Position numbers and translations under genes: made by a program. A stretch of DNA of 64,000 nucleotides from Fibrobacterales bacterium (GTDB taxonomy: Bacteria; Fibrobacterota; Fibrobacteria; Fibrobacterales; JAOPTW01). The stretch covers positions 36,059 to 100,058 of the forward strand of contig JAOPTX010000016.1 in the NCBI GenBank assembly GCA_051532055.1. The letters run 5' to 3'. Position 1 is the stretch's first letter; every line of letters starts with the position of its first letter. The notes under the pieces were generated by a model. The model had not been told where the DNA came from. It searched no databases and worked only from the letters and a program-made list of their open reading frames with translations. This document shows, piece after piece, positions 533-54,635 of this stretch.

Positions 533-1306
533 ATGAGTATTGCAATTATCACCGGTGCATCATCAGGTATTGGCGCATCATTTGCAAAGAAACTCGATTC
601 CGTAGGACTCAGTGAAATTTGGATTACTGCTCGCCGTATTGACCGTCTAGAAGCTCTTGCTGAAGAACTCTCTACACCTGTTCGAGTTATTGGAGCAGAT
701 TTAACGATCTCGAAAGGGCTCGGTACTCTTACCGGAATCATTACCGAAGAAAAGCCCGACATCTCCTATCTTATAAACAATGCAGGTTTTGGTAAAGTAG
801 GTTCTTTTACAGAAATCTCTCTTGAAGACACCCTTGGCATGATAACCCTTCAAGTTTCCGCACTCACCGAAATCACTCATACAGCCCTCCCTTACATGAA
901 GAAAGGAAGTACGATTCTTCTTGTTTCATCCCTTGCATCTTTTGTATCTATGCCAGGTTTTGCAACGTACTCTGCAGTAAAGGCTTATATAACCAATCTT
1001 GGTTATTCACTGTATCGAGAATTAAAGCCCAGAGGGATTCATGTAACAACAATCTGTCCAGGACCCGTCAAAACAGAGTTTGGTGCGCGTGCTCAATTTA
1101 CAGTAGTATCAAAAGGAACTGATGTTGTTGCAGAAGATATCACCTCTCTCGCTCTTGCAGATGCACAGAGAAAACTCCCCTTCTCAATGTTTGGAGCCAC
1201 ACCCAAATTGACCAAGTGGGCCATCCGGATTCTTGGAAATCGCATTTCGAGCTTTATAATCTGGCACTATATGCAACGCGAAATGAGCAAACAAAATTTA
1301 CGGTAA
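533..1306 (+). CDS. Short-chain dehydrogenase/reductase
   Basis: TGASSGIG, NNAG, YSAVK (YxxxK), CPGPV. Confidence 0.9.
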   Translation: MSIAIITGASSGIGASFAKKLDSVGLSEIWITARRIDRLEALAEELSTPVRVIGADLTISKGLGTLTGIITEEKPDISYLINNAGFGKVGSFTEISLEDTLGMITLQVSALTEITHTALPYMKKGSTILLVSSLASFVSMPGFATYSAVKAYITNLGYSLYRELKPRGIHVTTICPGPVKTEFGARAQFTVVSKGTDVVAEDITSLALADAQRKLPFSMFGATPKLTKWAIRILGNRISSFIIWHYMQREMSKQNLR

Positions 1307-2296
1307 GAGAGATTCAACCCGCTCTTTAAGACTATTGGGCTCAACTATTTCACAGGCACCTGTGGCAACACGCCCCACCAGCCACCGTTCAAAATCGACA
1401 GTGATATACAGCTTCAATGCAATAGTTTTTTTGGATCCATCACAGTCCGCAGCGGGGTCAAAATGAGCATCTTTCATATGACGATAAAACCACGACTCTT
1501 TACTTTTTAAAACAACGCGCTCCACGCTCTCTTCACTGTTTTCGTTACTCCACTGAGCAAACTTATACTTATAAAACTCTTGTATCTCTTTTTGATGTGT
1601 ACTATCAAAATAGTGATCCGGTATTTTTCCGGATAACACTTGGATTATTCCTTTCATGCGATCAAGGCGAAGGGTGCGGAGAAGTGACTCATTCTTTTTA
1701 CCATAACCCATCACATAGAGCTGTCCAATACGGAGTACAAGTTTTACGGGATAGAATTCAATCATACTCTCTTCATCGCGACTCGATGTGTATTTACCAA
1801 TGCGAATAGCCTGCTGGTTATCAATAGCCTGCAAAATCTTATCCATAGCAGGATTCATTTTAATGGAATCAGGGTTTACCGCAAAAGGACCATGACTAAT
1901 GATCCAATGAGTATCTGACTGCTGTAGTTTTTGAGGTGAAGAACGATTCTCTAAAAATGACCCAACATGATTGAGAAGATCTTGATACTGCGCCATTCCC
2001 GAGCTCGAGAGATCTTGAGTCATTTTTTTAAAAGCAATAATAGAATCATCATCAATCCAACTTTCGCGCGATTGAATATGAAAGGTGGATTCTCTTCCTA
2101 TTTGATTGTCTTTTCGTACAAAATCTTGATTGTTGAGAGCTATCTCTTTTAAATATCGCGCAAGAGTGCGATCATCGATGGGATCACCATACTCTGATTC
2201 AATCTGATGAAGTAACCTCGTTTTTGTCCATTCACGCTCTTTAAGGAGGGACTCAATAAGAGAAATGCGTTGATATTTTGAACTCTCTTTTTTCAT
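1298..2296 (-). CDS. WYL-domain transcriptional regulator (wHTH-WYL-WCX)
   Basis: N-terminal HTH with DDRTLARYL; WYL core PVKLVLRIGQLYVMG...RTLRLDRM; C-terminal WLVG...EIVEPNSLKE; 332 aa typical of PafB/PafC/DriD-like proteins. Confidence 0.85.
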   Translation of the reverse strand: MKKESSKYQRISLIESLLKEREWTKTRLLHQIESEYGDPIDDRTLARYLKEIALNNQDFVRKDNQIGRESTFHIQSRESWIDDDSIIAFKKMTQDLSSSGMAQYQDLLNHVGSFLENRSSPQKLQQSDTHWIISHGPFAVNPDSIKMNPAMDKILQAIDNQQAIRIGKYTSSRDEESMIEFYPVKLVLRIGQLYVMGYGKKNESLLRTLRLDRMKGIIQVLSGKIPDHYFDSTHQKEIQEFYKYKFAQWSNENSEESVERVVLKSKESWFYRHMKDAHFDPAADCDGSKKTIALKLYITVDFERWLVGRVATGACEIVEPNSLKERVESLLP

Positions 2297-2345
2297 GGGT
2301 TAGCCTTACTCAATAAACTGAAGTATAAAGTAAAGAGAAGTAATA

Positions 2346-2360
2346 TGACAAAATTTGTCA
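2346..2360. promoter_or_regulatory. Palindrome TGACA-AAATT-TGTCA upstream of the WYL gene (candidate WYL operator)
   Basis: Exact 5-5-5 inverted repeat 50 bp upstream of WYL ATG; overlaps a minus-strand TTGTCA-N18-TATACT promoter. Confidence 0.7.
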
Positions 2361-2522
2361 AACCTATCAATGTCCATACTCTACTATCGCCCTTTATGGA
2401 CAATTTTAACCCTTTCCCATAGTAACACCCACCCAAGTAACACTCTTTTATTCTGTATTTTTAGATATGCCGAAACGACAATTCCCTCGACCTCACTCGT
2501 AAATTAAGATATAATACTATAT

Positions 2523-2792
2523 ATGAGATTGAAACCATTAAATGCGCAGACAGCAATCACCGATATGATAGAACAATCACAATCGGTATATGATAGACCT
2601 GTTTTATCAGAAGAGGACTACAAGACTAAAATGCGCGACCTACTTCCTGGTACAGCCCAATCTCAACTTGAATCAGATGAGCTTCAGCATATATCTGATA
2701 TGGTTGAACGATACGAGCAACTTTCGAAACAGTATCATGACAGCGACGAACGAGTCACCCTTAGAAAATTGATACAACGCAAATCGGAGTAA
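2523..2792 (+). CDS. Hypothetical protein, 89 aa
   Basis: ORF preceded by TATAAT (2510-2515) and ending 3 nt before glpK. Confidence 0.6.
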   Translation: MRLKPLNAQTAITDMIEQSQSVYDRPVLSEEDYKTKMRDLLPGTAQSQLESDELQHISDMVERYEQLSKQYHDSDERVTLRKLIQRKSE

Positions 2793-2795
2793 CAC

Positions 2796-4289: not shown

Positions 4290-4342
4290 ATATAAAAAAA
4301 GGCCCTCTCTATAAAGGACCATAGCATTAAGAGCACTAAACG

Positions 4343-4594: not shown

Positions 4595-4648
4595 AGAAGA
4601 CCTCTTTTTTAATTAATAATAGCAAATGGAATGATGTTTTTCATTCCA

Positions 4649-9042: not shown

Positions 9043-9075
9043 TGACAAATACTGTCACCGCTCCCATTCTATATT
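9043..9075 (+). promoter_or_regulatory. TGACA-AATAC-TGTCA box, 12 bp, then TATATT -10; ssb promoter
   Basis: Exact palindrome 9043-9057; -10 at 9070-9075. Confidence 0.7.
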
Positions 9076-9103
9076 TACTATAGAACTAAACGGGAGAACA
9101 ATT

Positions 9104-9493
9104 ATGGCATGTTTAAACAAAGTTACCCTCATTGGCAATTTGGGTGCAGATCCGGAAATCAAAACAACTGTGCAAGGTGTGAAACTCGCACGATTCAATG
9201 TAGCAGTTACCGAAAAATATAAAGATCAACAAAATCAGAAACAAGAGAAGACCCAATGGTTTACCGTCATTCTCTGGAGACGTCTTGCTGAGATAGCAGA
9301 ACAGTTTCTTAAAAAAGGTTCTATGGTCTATATTGAAGGCAAACTGGAAAATTCGAGCTGGGATGATGAAAAAACTGGTGAGAAAAAATATAAGACTGAA
9401 ATTCATGGACTTAACATGCAGATGCTTAGTTCATCAAAACATGTTTCTGAATATGCTGTTGGTCATTCAAACATGAGTACTATGGCATATTAA
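9104..9493 (+). CDS. ssb: Single-stranded DNA-binding protein, short form without acidic tail
   Basis: LNKVTLIGNLGADPE, TQWFTVILW, KGSMVYIEGKL, KYKTEI; GGAG RBS. Confidence 0.93.
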   Translation: MACLNKVTLIGNLGADPEIKTTVQGVKLARFNVAVTEKYKDQQNQKQEKTQWFTVILWRRLAEIAEQFLKKGSMVYIEGKLENSSWDDEKTGEKKYKTEIHGLNMQMLSSSKHVSEYAVGHSNMSTMAY

Positions 9494-10267: not shown

Positions 10268-12538
10268 TTACTTTCTTAAAATTCGCTCTGAGACCCCTGA
10301 TCTACGCATTATTGACTGCCCAACTGCCGAAATAACACTTTCAGCACCCCCTACAATACCCGCGAAATACTTCGCACGAGTGACTGCAGTATAGAGAATT
10401 TCTTTAGTCATGACACGATTCATCTCTTTCGGGAGAGCAATCAACGCATATTCATACTCAGAACCTTGAGATTTATGAACCGTTATGGCAAAAGCAGTAT
10501 CAAATTGAGCGATATCTGAGACGGGATATATCCCAACAGAATCATTTTCCGGAATTGCAATAAAGTAGTTGTCACCAGATGCAATCACCACTCCACAGTC
10601 ACCATTAAAAACCCCATGGGTATAGTCGTTTTGGGTTATCATAACCTGAAGCCCTGGATAGACTCCCTCACGTACTTCGTACTGAAGTTCACCCTGCATA
10701 TACTCAAAGAGAATTTGATTTATTATGGCAGTCCCAACAGGTCCACTTCGAGTGACTCCCAAAATTTGAGATTGATTCATATAGGCGAAGAGTTCTGTAA
10801 AAAGTTCCTTCACTGTTGCATCTTCTACAATTTTGGTCCGTATCTCAGATGGTGTCAAGCCACTCTTCATTTTTTTTGTTAGGGCTGCAATTATCCCGCA
10901 ATACGAATGGGTACGAGTCCATGCATTATGGTATACCGATGTTTCTGCATAAGGTTGATCAACCAAATGAAACCGACACCAATCAATAAGGAGTTCTTTG
11001 AATGGGTCACGCTCTTTGGTTCGTTCACCTGGTTCAAGGAGTAGAGTGCCCTGAGTATTACACCGTTTTGCCCCTTCATCATCTATCACAACCATGGGCC
11101 ATTCAGGGTATCCATGTACATGAGGTAATTCCGCTACTACTCTCTCTGCGTCTTGCTTATTAATTAAGGCACTCAAAGAAAGAATTGAAGCTTCTGAACG
11201 ATGACTTTTACTGAGTACCACCATTGAATCTTTTAATAGATGATGAGCGCCGAGTTCAAGGTTTTTACATGAGGCATCGTCCATCTCGGTTCCAAGAATA
11301 TTTTGAAGCGCCTTGACTGATTCGGATGTCAGACTCGGGTTACCCTCTGGAATAGTTTTTCCAAATAGGTCACTCAGAACTGCCCCTGCCTGTACCGAAG
11401 GAAGCTGATTGTGATCACCTAAAAGAATAATACGGGTATCAGACTGGAGCGCCTCAATAATATTCAGGAAGAGTGCAGCGTCTACCATAGAAACTTCATC
11501 AATAATTACAATTTTCGCCGGGTGCTTATTATCACGACCATAAGTAAAGCGATTACGCCCTGGGTTATATTTTAAAAATCGGTGGATCGTTTGGGAGTCA
11601 ATAGAATCGAGCAGCGAGTCCTTCATATCTGATTCACCTTGAGGAATGAGCGCAACACTTTGTTCAACCGATTCCGCCATTCGCGCTGCAGCTCTACCCG
11701 TTGGAGCCACCATACTGATCTGATTTGAGTGTAAGTGAGGATTGAGCCGCACTAATACCCGAAGAAGGGCAACAACCGTACTTGTTTTACCGGTACCAGG
11801 CCCACCTGAAATAACAGAGAACTGTTTCTGTGCCGCCATCAAAACCGCCGCTTGCTGACGCAGATGAAAATGCATGGGACGAGAACCCAGCACCATAGGT
11901 TTTTCTATAAAGACATCGTTATAGGCCAATTCCAAATCAGGAGAAATAGTTAAAGGAGCCGTATCAATGATCGAATCGAGCCAGAGAGAGAGACGTTTTT
12001 CTACCCCAAAGTATTTCCCCGTATAAAACCCATAAGTCGCATCATACACAAACAGTGAGCTACCACTAGGGCCTTCGCAAAAAACAGGACCGAGCATATC
12101 CAGTCTTGATACCACATGATTCATTGCACTGGAAAATTGATGTTTGAGTGCAATCGAATCAAATAGAGAGACGAGTTGGTCTGCCAGAACGACATCTTGA
12201 GTTACAATTTTCTTACGTTCAATATACCCTTCAATCACCTCAATAATTTCTTGGTCTGTTTCACCAGGTAAATAATAGAGATGTCCCAACCCAGTAGAAA
12301 CAATAATTAATAGTTGGGCAAGGGTACTATGCGAGTCACGGACATTATTATTTAATAACCTATCTGAAAGTGTAGTCAATGAAAGATGAGCACCATCGAT
12401 ACAACCCGATTCTACAAGAAGATACACTGCAACAAAAAAAATATCTTCTTTCTCACTTGGCCTAATACCACCTTTGAGAGCCGCCTCACTCGGACCAATA
12501 GTTTCAATCCAGCACCGGGTCTGTAGTAATGCATCCAT
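10268..12538 (-). CDS. recD: Exodeoxyribonuclease V alpha subunit
   Basis: SGGPGTGKT, APTGRAA, DEVSMV, GDHNQLPSV, TVHKSQGSEY, LYTAVTRA. Confidence 0.93.
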   Translation of the reverse strand: MDALLQTRCWIETIGPSEAALKGGIRPSEKEDIFFVAVYLLVESGCIDGAHLSLTTLSDRLLNNNVRDSHSTLAQLLIIVSTGLGHLYYLPGETDQEIIEVIEGYIERKKIVTQDVVLADQLVSLFDSIALKHQFSSAMNHVVSRLDMLGPVFCEGPSGSSLFVYDATYGFYTGKYFGVEKRLSLWLDSIIDTAPLTISPDLELAYNDVFIEKPMVLGSRPMHFHLRQQAAVLMAAQKQFSVISGGPGTGKTSTVVALLRVLVRLNPHLHSNQISMVAPTGRAAARMAESVEQSVALIPQGESDMKDSLLDSIDSQTIHRFLKYNPGRNRFTYGRDNKHPAKIVIIDEVSMVDAALFLNIIEALQSDTRIILLGDHNQLPSVQAGAVLSDLFGKTIPEGNPSLTSESVKALQNILGTEMDDASCKNLELGAHHLLKDSMVVLSKSHRSEASILSLSALINKQDAERVVAELPHVHGYPEWPMVVIDDEGAKRCNTQGTLLLEPGERTKERDPFKELLIDWCRFHLVDQPYAETSVYHNAWTRTHSYCGIIAALTKKMKSGLTPSEIRTKIVEDATVKELFTELFAYMNQSQILGVTRSGPVGTAIINQILFEYMQGELQYEVREGVYPGLQVMITQNDYTHGVFNGDCGVVIASGDNYFIAIPENDSVGIYPVSDIAQFDTAFAITVHKSQGSEYEYALIALPKEMNRVMTKEILYTAVTRAKYFAGIVGGAESVISAVGQSIMRRSGVSERILRK

Positions 12539-15500
12539 TATTTATCTCCACTTATTTCAGGGTGCGCATCACGAATCATTTTTTCAATATCTATAGTATA
12601 GTGTTCTTCAATTATTGTTGCAGACTCTGGGCACATACATACATATCCATCATTGGATCCGGGCTGCATGCCTCGTATATAGAGATAGTAGACGCCACCA
12701 AAATGAGTATCAAAAGAGTAGCCAGGTAGGGCTGCCTGTAACCAACGATGGAGAGCAAGCGCATAAACCTGCAATTGTATATCATAATGATCTCGAATCA
12801 TACTCTCTTCAATTGCCTGGGCATCATAGCCATTTTCTAAATAATTTGATTTCCAATCGAGAATGTAATAACGTCCCTCAAAACGGAAGAGCAGATCAAT
12901 AAATCCTTTTACAAAATGAGCATCTTCATTCTTTGTAAAAAGTTGCACGCTCTCTGAATGGAGATAACTAAACTGAAACTCCATTTCAGCTTTAAGATCT
13001 TTTTCGGGAATTGTTGCCAGGGAAAAGGTATTGAACGGGTTGCGCGCATCGATCATCGGGGCAGTTAAACAGTTATGTATCAATCGTCCAATTGCCCGAT
13101 AATGCTGAGATCCAATACCATATTTTGTACAATAGAATTCAATTACATCCGCTGTCTTTTTATTCTTAAGTAGTGCAACCCCTGCATCTTCTCCAGACAA
13201 TGCACCCACTTCGGCAAAGGAGATATGTTCAAAAATATCGTGTAAGCAATTACCCGGCTCAGCTCCTCGGGGAATATCTTGAATATATTTATCAAACTGT
13301 GCCGGCCGTGGAGCCGTGGGCACAACACCGATAGAGGTAATTACCCGATTATTTTCATTAACAGTATGAGAAAGATGCGAGTACGACTCCATTATAATTT
13401 TTTTCTTAGAAAAACCAGAATAGTTAGGGATAACACCCACCAACTCTTTTACCATTTCTTCAGAAGGAGGTTCAACCTGTGTCGCTTTATACTCTTCACA
13501 ATCAGGATTTATAGTGACATAGCCTGAAAGCGTGTCATTGAGTGCGCCTGTAATAGCGGAAGTAAGTACCCGCCTCATCCCTACTTTTTGATTCACTTTT
13601 TCGGAACCCATAAGCGGCATATAGAGAAAGTATTTAGCCCGAGTAAGTGCTACATAGAGCAACCTGGTATATTCTGCAAGCCTCTTTTCTAAGGGTTCTT
13701 TTTGAGTAAAATCAAAGTGCCGGTGATCACTCTCTTTAGTGACCACATAGTTATTCATTTGTAATTCACCAAAACCACCGAGAAAAACCACATTAAACTC
13801 AAGGCCCTTAGATGCGTGCATAGTCAATATCTGTACTGCTGCATCATCACGTTCTTTCCGATAGAGTTCACCATCATCTTCACGTTCAAGACGCTTCGCC
13901 CGCCAATTTTTAAGGAGCGCGACTTGATCCTCAAGAGACAACTTTTTGCGATATGCCTCAGTTTGTAGGTCCTGCATTACTTGTTTATACGCATCAAGCT
14001 CTCGAAACCTATTAGGGCCAATTGTTATAGTACGTAACAGCTCTGTATCGTGTAAAAAAGAGTGGTAGAGCTCCCCCCATCTCCGTCGAGTAACCAGGCT
14101 GTGCCATCTATCATAGAGCACTCGTCGAGCACTGTCATTTTGGTGCTCGCCCAGCCCCCTCTCACCTTCTCCAAAAAAAGGCGTAAAGAGCGCTTTGGTT
14201 GCTGTATCAGGTGCAGCATCTGAGATACTCTCAAGAAGGTAGAGTATATGAGCCGATTCTTTTGACTGATAGACACCCTGCTGCTTATAATAGCTATAGG
14301 GTATTCCCCGCTCTTGGAGAAGTGATTCAAAATGAGTTACATCCCCTCGTTTCTCAACAAGGATTGCCATATCACTCCACTCTGCTCCTTGTACACGAAG
14401 ATCAAGAAGCGCATCAACCATCCAAGGATAATACTCTTCTCGATTTCCACCGAGACCCTCGCTTAACAATTCTTTCACCACAAATGGAGTGTATGTATCA
14501 TTCACCTTAAAACGTTCGTAAAAGGTTCCCGGTCTTTGGGCGGGCGAGGCATCAGGATAATGAACAGGGCTATATGTAATAGCACCCTCTGCAGTATCAT
14601 AACCAAAAAATGATGGTCGAGAAAAGAGGGCATTAAAGGCCTCAAGTATTCGCTTGCTCGAACGATAGTTGTCAGAGAGCGTGTGCATAACTTCATGACC
14701 AGAGAATGAAAGCATCTCTTCTTTGGCTCTATAATAGGTTTCAATATCAGCACCCCGAAAAGAGTAAATTGCTTGTTTTGGGTCACCAATAAGAAATAAA
14801 CGTGTATAGGTCGTTCTTAAAAAGAGAGTTTTAAATATATCCCATTGCGCGTCATCAGTATCTTGAAATTCATCAACCAATACCACATGATATTGACCAC
14901 GAATCCTCTGTGCAATATCTGGATTCGTTGTCACAAGTGTGCGCACTCGTTGTATCATATCATTAAAAGTAAAGAGCGACTGATTCTCTTTGGTCTCGCA
15001 GACTTTCTCGATTAACCGACTCAATAGCGGGATAATTCGAGCAGCCTCTACCTCTGTGTGGTAATTGACTGCTGCCTCACACAATGAAACAACAGCCTTT
15101 ACCACTACACTATAACTCTTACCATTGCAGTAAGGAAAAATTGTTTCATCATCAATATCAAACTGGGGATCATCACATTTTGATCCGAGCCATCCGGGTT
15201 CACTTTTTTGTCCCTTAAATTGTCTAATAAAACTATTCAGTGGTTCGGGACTAGTATCACTTTCACATTGTTCAATAACACCGCCCAATGCACCCCAAAA
15301 CATTTCGGTCCACTCATCAAACTTAGGGAGTTTTTTCCCTTTATTGAAAGCCCCTTTATGGGCGACAGCGACTTCTCTCTGTCGATCACCAAAAGCACTT
15401 AAGGTCGTATTGAAATCTATTCCCACTTGTTGTTTGAATAAGCCTATGCTCTCAGTAAATGGCTTCAGGGCTTCCCCAACCACCGTATCACTCTTACTCT

Positions 15501-16029
15501 TCTGTTCGGCAATAGCAATAAATACAGACTTTAAGAGATCATCAACATTTAAGTACGGACTCGATTTTACCAGACGTACCAACTCCGGATACTCTTTTGA
15601 CCATTCACCTTTGAATAGTTCGATACACTCCTGTACAATAAGTTCACGCTCATCAGTGAGTTTCTCTTGAAATGAACGCCCTGATTCAAATGGAATTTTT
15701 TGCAATACCTTTTTACACCACCCATGAATGGTATACACTTCTGCCGTTTCAAAATCACGAATAGCTTGCATGAGTCGAGCACACTCATCATGCCCTAATG
15801 CCTCACCATGAAGTTCACGGGAATGGAGTGTTTCAAGTAGTCCTTCTCGAATACGCTCACGCATCTCACCTGCAGCTTTTTCGGTGAACGTTACCAGCAG
15901 GATTTCATTAATACATGTCTCACTTGAGCGAAGTATCTCAAGAACCATCTGTTGAATAGTATAGGTTTTACCCGTTCCAGCCGATGCCTCAATCCACCCA
16001 TTGGGTCGTGTTGCTATTTCTTTAAACAT
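12538..16029 (-). CDS. recB: Exodeoxyribonuclease V beta subunit (helicase-nuclease)
   Basis: IEASAGTGKT, DEFQDTD, GDPKQAIYSFRGAD, HASKGLEF, LYVALTRA; nuclease GFIDLLF...ILDWKSN. Confidence 0.95.
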   Translation of the reverse strand: MFKEIATRPNGWIEASAGTGKTYTIQQMVLEILRSSETCINEILLVTFTEKAAGEMRERIREGLLETLHSRELHGEALGHDECARLMQAIRDFETAEVYTIHGWCKKVLQKIPFESGRSFQEKLTDERELIVQECIELFKGEWSKEYPELVRLVKSSPYLNVDDLLKSVFIAIAEQKSKSDTVVGEALKPFTESIGLFKQQVGIDFNTTLSAFGDRQREVAVAHKGAFNKGKKLPKFDEWTEMFWGALGGVIEQCESDTSPEPLNSFIRQFKGQKSEPGWLGSKCDDPQFDIDDETIFPYCNGKSYSVVVKAVVSLCEAAVNYHTEVEAARIIPLLSRLIEKVCETKENQSLFTFNDMIQRVRTLVTTNPDIAQRIRGQYHVVLVDEFQDTDDAQWDIFKTLFLRTTYTRLFLIGDPKQAIYSFRGADIETYYRAKEEMLSFSGHEVMHTLSDNYRSSKRILEAFNALFSRPSFFGYDTAEGAITYSPVHYPDASPAQRPGTFYERFKVNDTYTPFVVKELLSEGLGGNREEYYPWMVDALLDLRVQGAEWSDMAILVEKRGDVTHFESLLQERGIPYSYYKQQGVYQSKESAHILYLLESISDAAPDTATKALFTPFFGEGERGLGEHQNDSARRVLYDRWHSLVTRRRWGELYHSFLHDTELLRTITIGPNRFRELDAYKQVMQDLQTEAYRKKLSLEDQVALLKNWRAKRLEREDDGELYRKERDDAAVQILTMHASKGLEFNVVFLGGFGELQMNNYVVTKESDHRHFDFTQKEPLEKRLAEYTRLLYVALTRAKYFLYMPLMGSEKVNQKVGMRRVLTSAITGALNDTLSGYVTINPDCEEYKATQVEPPSEEMVKELVGVIPNYSGFSKKKIIMESYSHLSHTVNENNRVITSIGVVPTAPRPAQFDKYIQDIPRGAEPGNCLHDIFEHISFAEVGALSGEDAGVALLKNKKTADVIEFYCTKYGIGSQHYRAIGRLIHNCLTAPMIDARNPFNTFSLATIPEKDLKAEMEFQFSYLHSESVQLFTKNEDAHFVKGFIDLLFRFEGRYYILDWKSNYLENGYDAQAIEESMIRDHYDIQLQVYALALHRWLQAALPGYSFDTHFGGVYYLYIRGMQPGSNDGYVCMCPESATIIEEHYTIDIEKMIRDAHPEISGDK

Positions 16030-19000
16030 ACAACCCCTAGTATCGCGCCAAACCTATGTAAGTACACTTCAAGAGAGTCTGGTCGATATACTTTAAAGCG
16101 ATCAAATCCTAAATAATCGGGGACATAACTCGCTGAACAGTGACTTTCCCAAGCGGTCTCTATGGTAGTTACTACCTCTTGATAGAGTTCTTGATTAATA
16201 ATCGGTTTTTGGTCCTCTTCTGCAAAAGCTAATAATGATTCTTTTATGGGATCACACTTCTCAAGTCCTAACAACTCAAAACTTTCCGCTATCGCACCAT
16301 CTGATGATAAGCTCCCCGTATAAAGAGATTCAAAGGGAAGAGAATAAAGGTTTTCGGTTAATACCATTTCTGCAAGAAGCTCTTTGAGGCGTCTATCCGA
16401 GCCACTCAATGAGAGAGGTATTTTAAATTTCCTAATCGTACTCTTTTCGAGGCTACTCCAACACCATACCTCCACTCCATTCTGTACCTGTTCTTTGTAT
16501 GAATCAGTTTGAGCAAGAATAAGGAGACGCACATAGGCTATGAGTAGATGCTTGGGTTGAAAACTTTTTGTAAAATTATTGGGGACCAACATTATGGGGA
16601 GTTGGCCAGTAGATGAAACAAAGAGATGACCAGTGTTTCCTGTCACTTCTATTATATGATGTTCACCCGGAAGAGCAATTGGAATAGTTACCGATTGAGG
16701 CATTACGTATTGATATTCTTCTAAGTGCGTTTGCATACTATGAATACGCTCAATTTCAATTGATGCACCTTCGATAGTTTTTTCGAGGGCAATCTCACCC
16801 AGTACTGAAGTCGGTAAATTACCTAAGCGACAATTCCGGTCCCACTCGTCTTTAATAATACTCTGTACTCGATGCTCCCCAATTTCTTTTTCTAGACCAA
16901 ACCACTCCGTCAGTATTGTTTCAACAACCGCTCCTTTAATAGCACCCGCTTGGAGCATTGCAACTGTCAATGGTTCTTCAGACTCAATTGAGTGATCTTC
17001 ATCATCACCCCAAAGCCCGTACTTCTGTTGTAGCCGGTAGACTAATGGGTTTTCTAAAAACCGTTTTAAATGCCCCTCAGTTACTACAACATCGTCATTC
17101 AGACTCACCGGTATGGAAACATATTCACTCGTGTACGTTTCTGTCTCTTGCTGTAGCAAACTCGAAAGGTGTGCAAAGTGAGATGAGTAACTCGGAACGG
17201 TATACGTATCACATTGAGGCAGTTCAATAAGTGGTTGAGTATGCCCTCCTGTAAATAGACGACTATCACTATTAAGTAATGGAATATGACATCCCTTCAC
17301 CTGCGTAGTCAGAAGATAGTCATTGAAAAACTCTTTCAGTTCGGACACTAGCGAGCTTTGTTGAAGTGGCTCATCTTTTTTAAGGTCCATAGAGAGATAA
17401 CTCAATACCAGTTGTTCTTTAACTGAGGTTATAACTTCTAAAAAGAGATACCGATCAGTCTCAATAGGGGAAAAATCTCCTATTTCACGACGACACCCTC
17501 TGAGATCTAACGATCCATAACTCATACGCGAAGGAAAAACCCCTTCATTGAGTCCTAAGAGATACATACTTCTATAGGGAACCGGTGGCTTTGGACTCAA
17601 TGAAGTAACCGTTACGCCACCAGTGAGATAACTTCCGCCAAATCCTGGGAGGTCAATGAGTAATCCCAAAATAAATTCTTGGAGGAGTACCCAAGGAATA
17701 GTGCTTGACTTCCTCTGAAGAAGGGTCACCCGTGTCAATTCTTCATACAGTTGATCTCGTAACTTTTTCTCCGACTCGAGTTCTTCGGGTACACTGCACC
17801 ACGTTGTAAAAAAGAGCGGTAAAAAGGTGAGCCACTCAGAAACTGATTTTTGTTTTTTAAGTGCTGAAAGATCGCGATAGAGCAATTCAATAGTTTCAAC
17901 AAAAAGAGAGAGCAGTGCACTATTTTGCGAATCAATATCACTATAGGCCTCAAGAGCATCACCAACAACACTCCCTACTTCCGTAACTTGGCCAAGAAGC
18001 AGTCGATCCAAGGCCATTCTCCAGGTGTGAATATACTCTTCTGCATAGCCAGCACTCTGCCGATGGCTTTGATCAAAATGACGATAAATATTTAGACGTT
18101 CCGCCCACCCCACAAAGGTTGTGACCATCTCGGGCGTGATACCTCGAGCCGCTTGTACACAGGGGTTCTCCAAAAATGAAAACAGTTCTTTACGCGTAAA
18201 ATGACTCCCCGAGAGAGCCATCAAATCACGCACCGCCTGGCTATAGACACTAGTACTTGAGGTGCCATCGATGAGGCTATAAGGAATGCGCTCATGCCCT
18301 TCACTATTACGTGCCTCAAAGACCTGTTGTACTACGGGTGCATACCGTTCAAGGTCTGTTACAAATACTGCGATATCATGAAAACGCATCGTAGGATTGA
18401 GTCTGAGGGTATGGACAATACTATCATAGAGTGTCTCAACCTCTCGTTTAATTTCAGGTGCACTCCAAAACTGAACTGATGCATCTTGTTTTACAGGGGT
18501 GATATCTGTTGTTCTCTTGAGAAGTGAATGCTGAAGAGTTCCAAGGATAGTTTTTGTATCATGAGGTTCACTATAGCGATCAGCAAAAGCATAGTCTGTC
18601 GCCTGACACCAAAGCTGTATCCCTTCACGTCCTGGCCTTCCCCACTCTGCAAGAAGAGGATGCATCTGACCCTGTTCTTCTGGGAGAACCTCATCCATAA
18701 GGGCGTCTTCATCTTTGGTCAGTACATTCCGTTCTTCATCACTCAGCAGATTCCAGGTGCCAGTGTGTTGAATACGCCGCTTCTCCGAAACAAGATCTTC
18801 CCAAAACTCTGCACAAGGATTAAGGGCATAGACATTAAAAGTAACCCCCAACTCCGAGAGGGTAAAAATAAGGCTTCGATGAAACAGTGATATTTGAGAC
18901 ATTGCAAATATATGCCATGTTTCACCCTTACACGGTTCAGCATCAAAACTTTCTTCAGCTTTAAATACCTGCCGTGCATACATAGGGAGTGAGCAGTACC

Positions 19001-19643
19001 AGTCACTATTCGCTTCGGCGTAGCGACCGAGTACACCTCCTTCACCAAAGAGTTCTCGGTAAAGCGCTTTCTGCCAGAGCTCCACCTGCCCAAACCAAGT
19101 CTCTTCGTCAGGGCGAACGCCCTTTCCAATTTTTTTAGAAAAAAGAAGAAGATCTACATCAAGCCACGACTCAATCACTCCTTCACATGAGGGACTTTTG
19201 ATGCGCTTAAATTCATAATCAATAAAGACCGTAGCTATCTGTGTTGCAAGCTGCATCAATTTCCGGAAATAGAGACCCTCACTACTCTCTGTATCTCCTA
19301 AATATTTTTTAAGAGGCTCATACACCGGCAGAGCCATAAGCTCAGTATCCATCAAGCAATGAGCGACAAAGAGTGAAAGTGATGCTTTATTGAGGGGTTC
19401 AGCAGAGCCTTCCTCGTAAGTATCTATTTCTTGAAGTAATCGCCACAAGTTTTTTTCTAATCGTCCTACCTGCAAGTTTGCCACAATACCATCGCGCTGG
19501 GCCATATGGTATTGCAACCAAGTCCCCATCTGGCCACCCACAATTATAGGGTCGGGATTAAAGATATCATCGGGCTGATAATTATCGCGCAACTTCTCAA
19601 AGAGCTGCATAGTATCGTTACTAAAAAAGAGGTTTATAGCCAT
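16014..19643 (-). CDS. recC: Exodeoxyribonuclease V gamma subunit
   Basis: LNPCAEFW, HPLLAEWG, REVE, DIAVFV...YAP, DRYLFLE; first gene of recC-recB-recD. Confidence 0.9.
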   Translation of the reverse strand: MAINLFFSNDTMQLFEKLRDNYQPDDIFNPDPIIVGGQMGTWLQYHMAQRDGIVANLQVGRLEKNLWRLLQEIDTYEEGSAEPLNKASLSLFVAHCLMDTELMALPVYEPLKKYLGDTESSEGLYFRKLMQLATQIATVFIDYEFKRIKSPSCEGVIESWLDVDLLLFSKKIGKGVRPDEETWFGQVELWQKALYRELFGEGGVLGRYAEANSDWYCSLPMYARQVFKAEESFDAEPCKGETWHIFAMSQISLFHRSLIFTLSELGVTFNVYALNPCAEFWEDLVSEKRRIQHTGTWNLLSDEERNVLTKDEDALMDEVLPEEQGQMHPLLAEWGRPGREGIQLWCQATDYAFADRYSEPHDTKTILGTLQHSLLKRTTDITPVKQDASVQFWSAPEIKREVETLYDSIVHTLRLNPTMRFHDIAVFVTDLERYAPVVQQVFEARNSEGHERIPYSLIDGTSSTSVYSQAVRDLMALSGSHFTRKELFSFLENPCVQAARGITPEMVTTFVGWAERLNIYRHFDQSHRQSAGYAEEYIHTWRMALDRLLLGQVTEVGSVVGDALEAYSDIDSQNSALLSLFVETIELLYRDLSALKKQKSVSEWLTFLPLFFTTWCSVPEELESEKKLRDQLYEELTRVTLLQRKSSTIPWVLLQEFILGLLIDLPGFGGSYLTGGVTVTSLSPKPPVPYRSMYLLGLNEGVFPSRMSYGSLDLRGCRREIGDFSPIETDRYLFLEVITSVKEQLVLSYLSMDLKKDEPLQQSSLVSELKEFFNDYLLTTQVKGCHIPLLNSDSRLFTGGHTQPLIELPQCDTYTVPSYSSHFAHLSSLLQQETETYTSEYVSIPVSLNDDVVVTEGHLKRFLENPLVYRLQQKYGLWGDDEDHSIESEEPLTVAMLQAGAIKGAVVETILTEWFGLEKEIGEHRVQSIIKDEWDRNCRLGNLPTSVLGEIALEKTIEGASIEIERIHSMQTHLEEYQYVMPQSVTIPIALPGEHHIIEVTGNTGHLFVSSTGQLPIMLVPNNFTKSFQPKHLLIAYVRLLILAQTDSYKEQVQNGVEVWCWSSLEKSTIRKFKIPLSLSGSDRRLKELLAEMVLTENLYSLPFESLYTGSLSSDGAIAESFELLGLEKCDPIKESLLAFAEEDQKPIINQELYQEVVTTIETAWESHCSASYVPDYLGFDRFKVYRPDSLEVYLHRFGAILGVVCLKK

Positions 19644-19649
19644 GGTTGA

Positions 19650-19681
19650 AATATAAGTATTTTACCAGACAATAATTGTCA
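19650..19681 (-). promoter_or_regulatory. TGACA-ATTAT-TGTCT box, 11 bp, then TATATT -10; recCBD promoter (probably leaderless)
   Basis: One-mismatch palindrome 19667-19681; -10 at 19655-19650; ATG 6 nt downstream. Confidence 0.7.
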
Positions 19682-19682
19682 C

Positions 19683-36513: not shown

Positions 36514-36642
36514 ACCCCTCATACACCCACAACTCACATAGTGCTCAAAAAAGCACTAACTTTCTATTTATCCCCTTGCAAAGCAATACGTTAGCACCTA
36601 TATTGCCCATATGTGCAGTGCACGTTTGAATGAGGAGAATAG

Positions 36643-39090: not shown

Positions 39091-39860
39091 TCAATCAAAC
39101 CTTTCAACACTGTAAGGGCATTGGCCCAGTAACCGAAGAGAAAGTACTCCATGCAGGCTTTTCTCGTTGGGAAGACATTTTAGAAAAACCTGACTCCCTC
39201 CCCGTAGGTGGTAAAGTAAAAGACTCTCTCATGCAAATGACCGAGCAGAGTATCTATGCCCTTGAGTCAGACGATATTCAATTTTTTGTCGATTCGTTTG
39301 CTCCGTCACAACACTGGCGAATCCTCGATCGTTATTTCTCAAAGGCCTCTTACTTTGATATTGAAACAACTGGCTTTTCCAATTATGAAAGTGACATATC
39401 ATGTATCGTCTGTATGCACAAAGGCGAGCTTCACACTTTTGTACGCGATAAAAACCTGGATGATTTTCTCGATCTACTTGAAGATGTCGAACTCCTCGTT
39501 TCCTTTAATGGCACAAGCTTTGATGTTCCTTTTGTCGTTAATTCGTTTCATATTCCAGAAATCCCTTGTCCCCATGTTGATCTCAGATGGATCTGTTATC
39601 ACGCAGGCATCACCGGTGGTCTGAAATCCATAGAAAAGCAACTCAATATACAACGGCCAAAGCACCTCCAAGAGGTTGATGGCTTTGAAGCAATTTACCT
39701 CTGGGAAAACTGGAAGCGCTATCAAGACCATCAATCCCTCAATAAGCTCATTCAATATTGTCAGTACGATGTGCGCTCTCTCGCGACGGTTGCATCAAAA
39801 GTCATGACTAAAGTCCGCCCAAAGCCTGAGATTCATTCTCTACATACCCATGTTACTTAA
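39087..39860 (+). CDS. RNase H-like DEDD exonuclease (YprB/MrfB-like)
   Basis: FDIETTG, FNGTSFDVP, GGLKSIE, YCQYDV; overlaps helicase stop. Confidence 0.85.
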   Translation: MINQTFQHCKGIGPVTEEKVLHAGFSRWEDILEKPDSLPVGGKVKDSLMQMTEQSIYALESDDIQFFVDSFAPSQHWRILDRYFSKASYFDIETTGFSNYESDISCIVCMHKGELHTFVRDKNLDDFLDLLEDVELLVSFNGTSFDVPFVVNSFHIPEIPCPHVDLRWICYHAGITGGLKSIEKQLNIQRPKHLQEVDGFEAIYLWENWKRYQDHQSLNKLIQYCQYDVRSLATVASKVMTKVRPKPEIHSLHTHVT

Positions 39861-44072: not shown

Positions 44073-45854
44073 ATGATACAAGATAACACCGTGAACGACA
44101 CATCACAAAATGCAGAATATATACAAAAGAAACTGATACTCAACACTAAAATGAGTTTGAGCTTTGTAGCACTTTTAGTGATACTTTCCGCTACATTTCT
44201 CGTAAGTGGTTACCAGACGCTGGGACTGTTACTTATTCCATTTATGGCAATATTTATCGCAATCACTCTTTTATCAAAAATGGGATTTACCAAAGCAGCG
44301 CGTCAAGGATTTGTAATATCCTCCAATATTACCGTGCTGGTATTCTCAATCCTAGTAGGCAAAGAGAGTGCTATTGAGTTACTTTTTATAATACTTATTA
44401 TGTTTCCCTTTCAACTTTTTACCGTTAAAGAGAAATATCAACAAATTTTTTCAATCATCATGCTCCTCTCATGCGCAGCATGTACACAACTTTTCCACGT
44501 ATTTAGTCCAAGTGAAGGAATAACTCCCGCAGTAGCACGTATTATTGAGTTTATCATATACTTCTACGTGTTTTTCACAGTAATCGCACTTAATGCATCA
44601 GAGTACTTCGTCACAACATCACGCAGCGAAAAATTGAAAGCCAGTAATAAAGAACTCGGGAACTACAAAGATAAACTTGAAGAAATGGTTGTCGAACGCA
44701 CCAAAGCACTCGAAGAGGCTAATCGTTCTAAGTCGGAATTTTTGGCAAGTATGTCAAATGAAATTATTAGCCCAATTAATGAGATCATCAGTTACAATAA
44801 ACTTTTGAGTGGTTCGATACAACCAGAACTTAGATCCCACGTATCCGCTATCGAAAAGTCATCTCAAGATCTTCTTGTTCTTATTAACGATATTATTGAT
44901 GTTTCAAAACTTGAAACTGGATGGATTAAGCTTAATCAAAATCCCCTAGACCTCAAACTAATACTCAACGAAATAAAAGAAACCTACTTCGCTCGCTGTG
45001 AGAACAAGCAAGTTGCCTTTGAAGTAAATATTGCGTCCAACTTCCCCCATAGAATCATATTAGATGAACTCAGGCTCCGTCAAATTATTACGAACTTTGT
45101 GAGTAATTCTGTAAAATTTACTCCATCAGGCAGCATTACAATAGATGTCACTTTTGATTATATCGATGAGGAACTTATATCCTTTGACGTGCAAGTTTCC
45201 GACACCGGAAAAGGAATGTCCGAAAATAAGCTCCAACACCTCTTTGATACCTTTAGAGTCAGTAACATCAAAGACTCGGTGAAATATAAAGGAACGGGAC
45301 TCGGTCTCTCTATTTGTGAGAAGCTCACCAGAATGATGGGCGGGCATATTAAAGTAAAAAGTCAACTCAATAAAGGAACAACCTTTACTATCCACTTTGC
45401 CGATATAGCAATTTCAGCACTCCATGCTATTTCTACCGAAGGTTTCAAAGAGGTAAGTGACATTGAATTTGATGGCCAAACGATATTAACCGTTGACGAT
45501 GTCGCCTTTAACAGAGAGGTAGTTAAAAAGATATTAATGAACCATAATCTCAAAGTTATTACAGCCGAGAATGGTTCAGAGGCAACGCTTATAGCTCAAA
45601 AAATCATTCCCGATCTCATCATCATGGATATTAGAATGCCGATAATGAATGGTTATCAAGCTGCAGAAATAATTAAAACTGGCGTAGATACTAAACAAAT
45701 TCCTATAATTGCCTTAACAGCATCAACCAGTTCAGAAAACATCGATGATGATGACAACAACTTTTTTGATGGTGTACTCCCTAAACCAATTAAAGCACCA
45801 CTGTTGTTAGGGGAGCTTTCAAAACACCTTCATGTGGACGGAACAAAAAAGTGA
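44073..45854 (+). CDS. Membrane hybrid sensor kinase/receiver, H-box His replaced by Asn
   Basis: N-terminal TMs; KSEFLASMSNEIISP; NSVKFT, DTGKG, GTGLGL; receiver DD...MDIRMP...KP. Confidence 0.88.
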   Translation: MIQDNTVNDTSQNAEYIQKKLILNTKMSLSFVALLVILSATFLVSGYQTLGLLLIPFMAIFIAITLLSKMGFTKAARQGFVISSNITVLVFSILVGKESAIELLFIILIMFPFQLFTVKEKYQQIFSIIMLLSCAACTQLFHVFSPSEGITPAVARIIEFIIYFYVFFTVIALNASEYFVTTSRSEKLKASNKELGNYKDKLEEMVVERTKALEEANRSKSEFLASMSNEIISPINEIISYNKLLSGSIQPELRSHVSAIEKSSQDLLVLINDIIDVSKLETGWIKLNQNPLDLKLILNEIKETYFARCENKQVAFEVNIASNFPHRIILDELRLRQIITNFVSNSVKFTPSGSITIDVTFDYIDEELISFDVQVSDTGKGMSENKLQHLFDTFRVSNIKDSVKYKGTGLGLSICEKLTRMMGGHIKVKSQLNKGTTFTIHFADIAISALHAISTEGFKEVSDIEFDGQTILTVDDVAFNREVVKKILMNHNLKVITAENGSEATLIAQKIIPDLIIMDIRMPIMNGYQAAEIIKTGVDTKQIPIIALTASTSSENIDDDDNNFFDGVLPKPIKAPLLLGELSKHLHVDGTKK

Positions 45855-49872: not shown

Positions 49873-49873
49873 T

Positions 49874-52433: not shown

Positions 52434-52435
52434 TT

Positions 52436-53203
52436 ATGCGTATACAACTACCGTCACTATTATTGAAAACACTGCTATTAACATACCCTTTATTGGTTTT
52501 GGGGTGTGCCGAAACCGCGATGTCTACGGATACGAGTCAAAGTACAGACTCATCATTAATTAGAACACTCAACTACACCTACATCGGTTCAAAGATTTTT
52601 CCTCTCGAACACTCCGGTAACTACACCTACAACTTTTTACAATATGATACTGAAGGCAATAAGGTAGACTCTACAACAAAATTTAAGTTAGAAATTTCAT
52701 CATACTCTGCCGGGCCTGATGACAGCTTTCTCTTTCACATGCCCGGAGATGAAGCAGACATTCTACAATGGAAGGGAGAAGACTACTCTGCAGATGAACG
52801 TGGCATTTATATCATTGGCCGATACGACACAAAGAAAAAGCGGGAAATTTCTACGGAGGCTGATCCTATCTTTTGGCTTCCTCAATCTCCCGAAAAAGGG
52901 GTGCGTACTCTGGGTAGTGACTATACCATCGAGTACCTTGGCAATGACTTCTCCTATATCATGAGCGTTGACAACTGTAGCCGCCCAGTCCTTGAAGAAG
53001 CAATGCTCTTTAAAGAAGAAGCAGGAGACTTCACCAACTACTACTACATCAAAAAAGGGGTTGGCATTTTAGGCTGGGAGAAATACTACAAAGGCATACT
53101 CACCGACATGGCCGTACTAAACAATATGAATTTTAAGACGGACGATGAAGATGATTACTACGCGCCTAATAGCTGTTATGAGGATAATTACTATAACGAT
53201 TAG
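52436..53203 (+). CDS. Hypothetical lipoprotein
   Basis: Lipobox VLGC; YYIKKGVG motif; 2 nt after caspase gene. Confidence 0.7.
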   Translation: MRIQLPSLLLKTLLLTYPLLVLGCAETAMSTDTSQSTDSSLIRTLNYTYIGSKIFPLEHSGNYTYNFLQYDTEGNKVDSTTKFKLEISSYSAGPDDSFLFHMPGDEADILQWKGEDYSADERGIYIIGRYDTKKKREISTEADPIFWLPQSPEKGVRTLGSDYTIEYLGNDFSYIMSVDNCSRPVLEEAMLFKEEAGDFTNYYYIKKGVGILGWEKYYKGILTDMAVLNNMNFKTDDEDDYYAPNSCYEDNYYND

Positions 53204-53238
53204 TACAAAGTAATCACTCAGAACATCTCAATTGGCCC

Positions 53239-53271
53239 TGTCAATAAGTGTCACTGTACCCGAGCTACCTT
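53239..53271 (+). promoter_or_regulatory. TGTCA-ATAAG-TGTCA box, 12 bp, then TACCTT -10; rmuC promoter
   Basis: One-mismatch palindrome 53239-53253; -10 at 53266-53271. Confidence 0.62.
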
Positions 53272-53303
53272 TACTATGTTTACCACAGTAAAGGAGTTCT
53301 TCT

Positions 53304-54635
53304 ATGACGACACACCCCCTTGTTATCACTCTATTGATACTTCTCAGTATCAACCTCATTATCTTAATTCTTGTGCTCATTAAAACCAGGGCTTCATCCG
53401 CACAAAAACCCATAACACAGTTTTCAGAGTCTATTACTCAACTCCTCCACGATTCATTTAATCAAAATCGCAATGACAGTCTCCATCGTTCATCTCTCCA
53501 GCGAGAGGAGCTCAACAATAGCCTTCAACGCGTCTCTGACTCCCTTTCTCAACGACTCTCAGAGAGCGCAACACAGCAAAAAGAACAACTTGAGCTTTTT
53601 TCAAATGTCCTCCAAAGTCTGAGTAACTCAAATGAAGCACGTTTTACCAAACTCAATGCCACTCTCAGTGAAAAAATCACCGCACTCCAAACCGATAACA
53701 ACAAAAGGCTCGACCTCATCAACCATACTGTTGATGAAAAGCTTCACAAAACTCTCGAAGAACGCTTGGGCCACTCATTTAAACTGGTCTCTGAGCAACT
53801 CGAAAAGGTGCAAAAAGGACTGGGCGAAATGCAAACCCTCGCCCATGGTGTCGGTGACCTCAAACGGGTTTTAACCAACGTAAAAACCAAGGGAGTACTG
53901 GGCGAATATCAATTAGCCAATATTTTAGAGCAACTCCTTACTCCAGCACAATACTCTTCAAACGTTAAAACCAAGAAAGGGAGTGACGCTATTGTAGAAT
54001 TTGCCATCAAACTCCCTGGCAGGAATGAGACCAATGAGACCGTTTGGATTCCCATCGATGCAAAGTTCCCCACTGAGCACTACCAAGAACTCTTGATGAT
54101 GTATGAAACAGGAGACAAAGCAGTCATTGACACCGCTCAAAAAGCGCTCTACAAAACCATCCGCCAGTGTGCCAAAGACATTGCTACCAAATATATTGAC
54201 CCACCACACACTACTGATTTCGCCATACTCTTTCTTCCTATTGAAGGGCTCTATGCCGAGGTACTACGGGACCATGAACTCTTTCAAACGCTTCAACGAG
54301 ACTATCATGTAGTCGTTGCAGGCCCCACCACACTCTCTGCCCTCCTCAATTCTCTTCAAATGGGTTTTAAAACCCTTGCTATTGAGCAACGTTCGAGCGA
54401 AGTTTGGAACATTCTCGGAGCCGTTAAAACCGAATTCAATAAGTTTGGCACCATTCTCGACAAAACTCAAAAGAAACTTGATGAGGCCAGTAAAACTATC
54501 GAATCTGCAGGAGTACGTACCCGAGCAATTGAACGCAAACTCCGTGATGTTGAAGAGATCCCTCTGCAACAGGATTCACAGCAATTTTCTGACATTCTTC
54601 CCTCATCCCCTGATTTAGAGAAGGTTGAAGATTAA
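53304..54635 (+). CDS. rmuC: DNA recombination protein RmuC
   Basis: N-terminal TM plus coiled coil; LKRVLTNVKTKG..GE, PIDAKFP, KYIDPP.TTDFA, GPTTL. Confidence 0.93.
   Translation: MTTHPLVITLLILLSINLIILILVLIKTRASSAQKPITQFSESITQLLHDSFNQNRNDSLHRSSLQREELNNSLQRVSDSLSQRLSESATQQKEQLELFSNVLQSLSNSNEARFTKLNATLSEKITALQTDNNKRLDLINHTVDEKLHKTLEERLGHSFKLVSEQLEKVQKGLGEMQTLAHGVGDLKRVLTNVKTKGVLGEYQLANILEQLLTPAQYSSNVKTKKGSDAIVEFAIKLPGRNETNETVWIPIDAKFPTEHYQELLMMYETGDKAVIDTAQKALYKTIRQCAKDIATKYIDPPHTTDFAILFLPIEGLYAEVLRDHELFQTLQRDYHVVVAGPTTLSALLNSLQMGFKTLAIEQRSSEVWNILGAVKTEFNKFGTILDKTQKKLDEASKTIESAGVRTRAIERKLRDVEEIPLQQDSQQFSDILPSSPDLEKVED

Follow-up and report, generated by a model that had tools for sequence, protein, structure and literature searches.

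In the present study, a stretch of 64,000 nucleotides (the window; contig JAOPTX010000016.1) from the genome of an uncultured marine Fibrobacterales bacterium (G000; assembly of 5.17 Mb, 181 contigs, 39.6% G+C) was analysed, in which a short box, TGACA-N5-TGTCA, recurs upstream of genes encoding a WYL-domain regulator, a second single-stranded DNA-binding protein (SSB; gene ssb2) and the RmuC nuclease. The main finding is that this box forms part of a composite promoter, in which the proximal half-site occupies the -35 position at one distance from a predicted -10 element, and that this promoter is confined to these three genes in the genome and to the orthologous places in a relative. With little more than even confidence, we propose that the WYL protein might be a DriD-like, autoregulated activator of the three promoters. 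An earlier note on this DNA had proposed that one homodimeric WYL protein controls RecBCD, SSB and RmuC; the DriD-like fold of the protein and the promoter architecture at ssb2 and rmuC uphold a part of this claim, whereas the recCBD part is not supported.

Composite promoters of the WYL gene, ssb2 and rmuC

The sequences and coordinates of the four boxes given in the earlier note are correct, and the gene identities WYL, SSB, RecC/RecB/RecD and RmuC hold by Pfam. Box 1 (TGACAAAATTTGTCA, 2346-2360), located in the WYL gene's own promoter, and box 2 (TGACAAATACTGTCA, 9043-9057), located upstream of ssb2, are exact palindromes, and box 3 (TGTCAATAAGTGTCA, 53239-53253, plus strand), upstream of rmuC, has the form TGTCA-N5-TGTCA, with T and not A at the centre of the distal half-site. 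A doubtful fourth site (TGACAATTATTGTCT, 19667-19681, minus strand; AGACAATAATTGTCA on the plus strand) lies 23 nucleotides before the start of recC. Two exact palindromes in the window, as against 0.05 expected, were reached in none of 100 shuffles, and in this respect the earlier note was right that they exceed chance. The one-mismatch copies number five, as against 2.93 expected, which 14 of 100 shuffles reached, and the fifth of them lies at 45136-45150 within a histidine-kinase open reading frame (ORF); hence, judged by count alone, neither the recC copy nor the rmuC copy exceeds chance. The description of four intergenic copies is literally correct, but the recC copy is squeezed into a 39-nucleotide gap and the one-mismatch copies are at background.

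Three results distinguish the composite promoter from the box itself. First, the pattern TGWCA-N5-TGTCA-N18-TAYWHT has exactly three matches in the 5.17-Mb genome, namely those of the WYL gene, ssb2 and rmuC, and with the distance relaxed to N17-N19 there are three matches in this genome and three in its congener (G001, the sole same-genus relative compared, with a WYL protein 91% identical), in orthologous places and all at N18, while the reversed-pattern control gave no match in either genome. Second, when the half-site spacing of the composite pattern was varied, three intergenic matches were obtained at spacing 5 and none at each of 12 other spacings. Third, the partial pattern TGTCA-N18-TAYWHT gave 10 intergenic matches at N18 versus 5 to 14 at other distances and is no common promoter type in this genome. 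When one mismatch was allowed in the composite pattern (non-overlapping matches), four sites were returned in addition to those of ssb2 and rmuC, and other spacings gave no fewer.

The -10 elements of the three promoters, which are predicted from sequence and not from mapped transcription starts, are TATACT for the WYL gene (2322-2327, minus strand) and TACTAT for both ssb2 (9076-9081, plus strand) and rmuC (53272-53277, plus strand), each at N18 from the proximal half-site TGTCA and each with a Shine-Dalgarno sequence and an ATG at a sensible distance downstream. The rmuC copy, as one of only three composite matches genome-wide, is thus rescued by its architecture, and the recC copy is not. 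The hexamers at the -35 position of the three promoters are poor (xTGTCA), and their spacer to the -10 element is 18 nucleotides, an arrangement that would fit dependence on an activator.

The comparison with the congener showed which parts of these promoters are retained. The half-sites of box 1 are kept with one spacer base changed, and homology stops directly after the box; in a second strain, represented in DNA run X1, homology is likewise broken at 2361. Both half-sites of box 2 are kept although three of the five spacer bases are changed, and most of the sequence between the -35 and -10 positions of ssb2 differs while its length is still 18. Box 3 is identical, with homology beginning 4 nucleotides upstream of it. 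Of the perfect palindromes, the congener conserves two, which are precisely the ones belonging to the WYL gene and to ssb2, and two further runs (X3 and X4), covering small shares of the window only, yielded no informative variants over either box. The conservation near orthologs in relatives envisaged in the earlier note was borne out at the three promoters of the congener, but rmuC upstream regions outside the genus do not have the architecture: the box was found in neither of two such regions in Fibrobacterales, and 72 of 80 metagenomic rmuC loci, those with at least 120 nucleotides upstream, gave two core matches, no more than other spacings, and none with a -10 element at N18. The segment 2361-2481, between box 1 and an ORF of 89 amino acids without family assignment (2523-2792), is replaced in the related strain by unrelated sequence of about the same length (119 versus 131 nucleotides), so that conservation does not extend to the divergent side of the WYL promoter.

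The WYL protein and known WYL systems

The WYL gene (1298-2296, minus strand; Pfam WYL, E = 6e-11) encodes a protein of 332 amino acids with a helix-turn-helix domain of the winged type (wHTH), a helical linker, a WYL domain and a C-terminal dimer domain (WCX). An RNA contig covers 1677-2047 of the gene; the RNA evidence used in the present study consists of contigs of an environmental RNA library, which show the presence of a transcript and not its level or induction. In the AlphaFold model (32-sequence alignment; mean predicted local distance difference test score, pLDDT, 82.9), helices at 7-55 are followed by strands at 59-74, helices at 83-117, strands at 162-224 and the WCX domain at 259-330. 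When this model was compared with the PDB by Foldseek, DriD chains came first (about 350 columns aligned, E = 1.9e-12 to 3.7e-10), PafBC second, and BrxR and CapW thereafter (E = 7e-7 to 3e-5). With the single protein sequence as the query, PafBC was the only PDB match (E = 3.5e-4), and the family profile aligned with DriD over the full length (E = 4.9e-9; positions 3-317 on DriD chain residues 8-324). The order wHTH, helical linker, WYL and WCX within about 330 amino acids is shared with activators of the DriD/DdaA type. In the profile alignment, the recognition helix R43-T44-x-x-R47 aligns with RRTAER of DriD, and among the 32 homologs R47 is invariant and R43 is at least 90% conserved; when the alignment was read by eye against the DriD residues that contact single-stranded DNA, Y169, Y194, R207 and R210 aligned with Tyr168, Tyr192, Arg204 and Arg207 of DriD, whereas its Arg176 and Arg178 found no clear counterpart. 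The model and the profile support the view that the WYL protein is DriD-like.

The protein is predicted to be homodimeric. A two-copy prediction scored 0.57, as against 0.00 for the best of three controls, with a contact agreement between runs of at least 73% and a partner pLDDT of at least 75. Of 30 proteins solved as same-chain pairs, 20 attained the mark, as did 1 of 23 solved as single chains. DriD dimers have already been solved, so the pass may reflect likeness only and is no proof.

DdaA, as described by Song et al. (PMC12392091), stands in for LexA; its motif, CGWCA-N5-TGWCG, is found at more than 15 genes, among them recA, ssb and uvrA/C, and its control extends to Cas and restriction-modification systems. 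Its sites lie about 50 bp upstream of transcription starts, recognition-helix arginines are named as base-reading, and the likeness to the DriD operator CGAC-N7-GTCG is remarked upon. The operator sequences of DdaA and of DriD, the latter again CGAC-N7-GTCG, are confirmed in a further report, according to which WYL regulators may be activators or repressors (PMC13010146). A DriD operator (ATACGACCGTTTCTGTCGCA) and the ssDNA-contact residues of DriD (ssDNA, single-stranded DNA) have also been published, as have BrxR and CapW, whose wHTH-WYL-WCX dimers sit on palindromes within the promoter region of their own genes (PMC9186387). The DriD site overlaps the -35 element at a fixed distance from the -10 element, and a further site lies in the bidirectional promoter of driD itself, whereas PafBC, a heterodimer or fusion, uses a non-palindromic -26 element and contacts sigma (PMC13004042).

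The box described here, written T-GAC-A-N5-T-GTC-A, contains GAC-N7-GTC, which is the core of both the DriD and DdaA operators, and the GTC/GTC variant at rmuC is allowed by the W at the centre of the DdaA half-site. The suggestion that such a motif had not been described is not supported, since the motif class is already in print for DdaA and DriD. In all three promoters and in both genomes the box lies over the -35 position with N18 between it and the predicted -10 element; in this point the likeness to DriD is that of the fixed-distance rule. In the literature searched, no paper was found that links WYL with Fibrobacter or with TGACA/TGTCA.

DriD, the WYL activator of the SOS-independent damage response in Caulobacter crescentus, is the closest of these systems. 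Length, domain order, the best structural match, an RTxxR recognition helix, a palindromic GAC-N7-GTC operator over the -35 position at a fixed distance from the -10, a site in the regulator's own promoter and the homodimeric state (predicted here) are alike. However, the two proteins are only 18-19% identical, the outer half-site bases are C/G in DriD and T/A here, the targets are didA, bapE, recJ, dnaG and others in DriD and would be ssb2 and rmuC here, the phylum here is Fibrobacterota, and the own-promoter site of DriD drives a divergent operon whereas here the -10 element lies on the regulator's side. DdaA (Acinetobacter/Moraxellaceae), compared here by its operator, is alike in operator core and spacing and has ssb among its targets, but it replaces LexA and governs more than 15 genes, whereas LexA is present here and only three promoters show the full architecture. 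PafBC shares the WYL fold and has a role in DNA damage, yet it is described as a two-chain or fused protein acting at a -26 element, unlike the single 332-amino-acid protein and the palindrome at the -35 position seen here. BrxR and CapW share the wHTH-WYL-WCX dimer and a palindrome in their own promoter region; in contrast, they are repressors located beside the phage-defence system that they control, they are weaker structural matches, and no defence genes flank the WYL gene here.

Herein, we propose the following mechanism, which takes as its ground the sites and their architecture, the conservation in one congener, the fold and the recognition helix; binding, activation rather than repression and the signal are what we infer. 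The 332-amino-acid WYL protein would be a homodimeric transcription factor of the DriD/DdaA type, the two winged-helix domains of which would read TGWCA-N5-TGWCA with the core GAC-N7-GTC. The promoter-proximal half-site would replace the -35 element exactly 18 nucleotides upstream of the TAYWHT -10 element, and the bound protein might recruit a sigma70-type RNA polymerase, thereby activating its own gene (positive autoregulation), the tail-less SSB paralog and rmuC. The signal might be single-stranded DNA on the WYL domain, by analogy with DriD, and the circuit would run beside a LexA regulon with a different box and not in its place. Established examples of ssDNA-sensing WYL activators come from Alphaproteobacteria (DriD), Actinobacteria (PafBC) and Moraxellaceae (DdaA). 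If true, the present reading would extend the mechanism to Fibrobacterota and the FCB group, beside an intact LexA rather than as its replacement; the novelty would lie in the phylum, in the presence of LexA alongside and in a target set that is both small and unusual.

The protein family, however, is tiny, and this argues for a narrow lineage rather than a general rule: among 1.84 billion representatives, 46 homologs were found at E up to 0.001 and only two at E = 1e-30 or better. A word-based search added two further clusters (65% and 68% identity), and homology at 39% identity was also recovered; outside the genus, nothing in a phylum-wide search of 296 genomes exceeded 33% identity, a contig scan for WYL homologs found the congener only, and a metagenome scan with a four-protein alignment found none. 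A WYL homolog of 28-30% identity is present in all 35 main-family Fibrobacterales genomes searched (loci L003-L030), and in most of the loci read another gene lies directly before it and the upstream sequence looks coding, an arrangement that points to a conserved operon. The Fibrobacter homologs (about 28% identity) were tried as a source of boxes and set aside as uninformative paralogs, with no related box in the loci read. The neighbours of the WYL gene in the window are a dehydrogenase gene, the 89-amino-acid ORF and an FGGY kinase gene, with no adjoining defence system, and PADLOC gave hits with its WYL models and, at a distance of 51 kb, a weak one with a model of the RmuC type, and nothing else.

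Alternative explanations

Several results count against an activator of this kind and have to be weighed together with the competing explanations. An ortholog of the WYL protein was found in one related genome only, the congener with 91% identity. Arg176 and Arg178, two ssDNA-contact residues of DriD, have no clear counterpart in the WYL protein when the alignment is read by eye. When the distance between the box and the -10 element was varied, zero to two matches were found in other three-nucleotide windows versus three at 17-19, so that the distance signal alone is modest. Moreover, the exact palindrome occurs six times in the 5.17-Mb genome, where composition predicts about six; three of the six are intergenic, and other half-site spacings give zero to two intergenic copies, when every ORF of 100 amino acids or more is counted as coding, a rough mask that makes 87% of the genome coding. 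The genome-wide scan foreseen in the earlier note thus gave a divided answer, with the exact palindrome at chance level but the composite promoter at exactly three places. The palindrome count, and the background level of the one-mismatch sites, would suit the explanation that there is no dedicated regulator and that the boxes are -35-like relatives of TTGACA recurring by chance and shared ancestry. The -35 consensus of this genome, as seen in the lexA promoter, likewise has TGACA at its core. Against this stand the three composite matches versus none at 12 other spacings and none in the reversed controls, the half-sites kept amid diverged spacers, and the finding that TGTCA-N18-TAYWHT is no common promoter type, and we consider the chance explanation very unlikely.

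A box over the -35 position suits a repressor equally well. The same WYL protein might act on the same boxes in the manner of BrxR and CapW, blocking the polymerase at the -35 position until a ligand releases it, and the Foldseek matches to BrxR and CapW, the existence of WYL regulators of both signs (PMC13010146) and the presence of WYL and ssb2 transcripts in environmental RNA without known stress are consistent with this, the last point being weak as contigs cannot show level. However, the activators DriD and PafBC are structurally closer, the operator core matches that of the activators DriD and DdaA, no defence system adjoins, and the poor -35 hexamer with an 18-nucleotide spacer would set these promoters apart from the strong ones on which repressors usually sit. 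Repression is therefore an alternative that we take seriously but hold to be unlikely.

A further explanation arises from a second class of sites. The direct repeat TGTCA-N5-TGTCA occurs at 8 intergenic versus 2 coding places, with zero to three intergenic copies at other spacings; with the palindromes included, TGWCA-N5-TGWCA gives 11 intergenic versus 8 coding sites, the everted form has no intergenic copy, and G or C at the half-site centre is not enriched. Besides box 3 (window 53239-53253), the direct repeats lie at C4:188836, C7:243105, C35:39719, C44:8545, C47:75281, C47:78344 and C57:26945, where they precede genes for BNR/LamG, CBM6/fn3/phosphoesterase, Fib_succ_major, GH63-like, HDOD, ferredoxin-like and unnamed proteins. 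The BNR/LamG, CBM6, Fib_succ_major and GH63-like products make these genes secreted or glycan-related ones. WCAAR is the spacer common to the sites, and those outside the window have no -10 element at N18. The congener has direct repeats at 10 of its 18 TGWCA-N5-TGWCA sites, and four of these are identical letter by letter to sites of the present genome, one being the rmuC box. By sequence, the rmuC box fits this class too, including its spacer consensus, and another factor could own these sites. The direct repeats likely mark a separate regulon, and they would be bound either by the same WYL protein without the activation geometry or by another factor.

The binder of the direct repeats might own TGWCA-N5-TGWCA as a whole, with the three window promoters in its regulon and the WYL gene merely among its targets, and the intergenic excess of the direct repeats, the double fit of the rmuC box and the four sites shared with the congener would agree with this. 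We regard it as rather improbable, as the direct-repeat sites outside the window do not have the -10 element at N18, the conserved perfect palindromes are those of the WYL gene and ssb2, the match to the DriD and DdaA operators points to the WYL protein, and the best palindrome stands in the WYL gene's own promoter, as in driD.

Proposed regulated genes and the recCBD operon

Under the DriD-like activator preferred here, two genes besides that of the regulator would be controlled. The first, ssb2 (9104-9493, plus strand; Pfam SSB, E = 4.3e-34), encodes an SSB paralog of 129 amino acids that ends in ...STMAY, without an acidic C-terminal tip, and its transcript is present in the environmental RNA library. 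The other SSB of the genome, on contig C2, has 147 amino acids and ends in the acidic tip ...EDDLPF, so the putatively regulated gene is the spare paralog. The proposal of ssb as a target is upheld as to family and composite promoter, but the gene is a tail-less second paralog and not that of the housekeeping SSB. The second, rmuC (53304-54635, plus strand; Pfam RmuC, E = 6.2e-75), is full-length at 443 amino acids and rare in the order, being present in 4 of 41 Fibrobacterales genomes searched. Competence is the setting in which SSB paralogs without the tail are otherwise known, and the role of RmuC is poorly understood; if both genes stand behind one ssDNA-type switch, they would offer a testable handle on both functions.

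The recC-recB-recD operon (10268-19643, minus strand; recC 16014-19643, recB 12538-16029, recD 10268-12538, all by Pfam) lies downstream of a short-chain dehydrogenase gene (19683-20396, minus strand), from which a gap of 39 nucleotides separates it. Although the core GACA-N5-TGTC is retained at the recC site, a -10 element at N18 is missing, and a box followed by N18 and a hexamer from this site would run into the recC start codon. An RNA-library contig from a related strain spans 19463-19743, across the gap between the dehydrogenase gene and recC, and hints at read-through, although contigs cannot prove a single transcript. In a stretch of 181 nucleotides that is 92% identical to the congener, no mismatch falls within 19639-19685 (the recC start and the gap), and another strain, in run X2, shows no difference there either; the full identity suggests a constraint of some kind but cannot single out the box. 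A site without promoter architecture, 23 nucleotides from the start and bridged by an RNA contig, makes the membership of RecBCD doubtful. With no room for the same promoter, a site at background and the gap bridged, control of recCBD by the WYL protein, as formerly claimed, is not supported, and we judge that recCBD may, though improbably, belong to the regulon. The recC gene has no Shine-Dalgarno sequence and has TATATT 6 nucleotides before its ATG, and a leaderless start is conceivable from this arrangement. A reading of the recC palindrome as a terminator was rejected by eye, its stem being AT-rich and of 5 bp.

A wider version of the hypothesis can be formulated, which we put forward as speculation of low probability. 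A LexA-independent, ssDNA-sensing WYL circuit might drive a module for the response to breaks or phages, consisting of RmuC and a tail-less SSB unable to recruit the usual partners; it might touch recCBD through the conserved core site, so that ssDNA made by RecBCD would feed back, and it may also occupy the eight direct-repeat sites. If the same protein did act at the direct-repeat sites, DNA stress would be coupled to surface and foraging functions.

LexA and other repair genes

The genome contains lexA (206.5 bits), and its presence would allow the explanation that a divergent LexA binds the box and that the three promoters belong to the SOS regulon. However, the lexA promoter (TTGACA-N17-TACATT) carries TGCTCATAAGTACA in its spacer and not the box described here. 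LexA-type boxes are found instead at uvrA (TGCACACTTGTGCA, 51 nucleotides upstream of the gene at C15:224101-229473, minus strand), at mrfA in the window (TGCCCATATGTGCA, 36604-36617, 25 nucleotides before the ATG) and upstream of a umuD-like operon; recA has a copy with one mismatch, and no box like TGCNC-N4-GNGCA was found upstream of the WYL gene, ssb2, recC or rmuC. A divergent LexA is, on these results, extremely improbable. The check for lexA suggested in the earlier note thus revealed a gene with a different box of its own, and the broad repair regulon expected there did not materialize, since recA (one mismatch) and uvrA carry LexA-type boxes and not TGACA-N5-TGTCA.

The pattern TGCNC-N4-GNGCA, which we take to be the LexA box of Fibrobacter succinogenes, is enriched between genes, with 26 intergenic versus 24 coding matches at spacing 4 and 3 to 16 intergenic matches at other spacings; however, 14 of the 26 intergenic sites are one repeated 24-mer. 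It replaced a guessed LexA box, AGTGY-N8-RCACT, which had only three intergenic matches. A further candidate for the WYL box, TGACAGAAACTGTCT, 126 nucleotides before the ATG of recA, was rejected, being without a -10 element at N18 and, by eye, apparently within the coding frame of the upstream gene.

Several minor observations concern the genes with LexA-type boxes. The uvrA frame at C15:224101-229473 joins two uvrA-like halves in one product of 1791 amino acids, a full UvrA and a second UvrA-like copy. In the window, an MrfA-like helicase gene (36643-39090; DEAD, Helicase_C and MrfA Zn-binding domains) is followed by a gene for an RNase_H_2 exonuclease (39087-39860; MrfB-like), and these two are probably an SOS-controlled mitomycin-repair pair; a palindrome TAGTGCT-N6-AGCACTA lies at 36539-36558, upstream of mrfA. 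The 24-mer TTCTATGCACTGAAGTGCAAAAAG, which contains a LexA-box-like palindrome, recurs in about 14 near-identical copies on C3, C45, C46, C47, C83, C89, C100 and C115, nine of them 136-342 nucleotides upstream of a plus-strand gene (within 350 nucleotides), and the 24-mer is a candidate for a repeated promoter or the end of a mobile element.

Two further WYL matches were noted in the genome. One is a second WYL regulator on contig C42 (L069:2806-3852; HTH_11 and WYL, 348 amino acids), which is 23% identical to that of the window; upstream of its gene, L069 2680-2810 holds four GTGCAC copies, two of which form AGTGCAC-N6-GTGCACT, and the gene might possess an operator of its own or be subject to control of the LexA type. 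The other, at C1:63538, contains an in-frame TAG.

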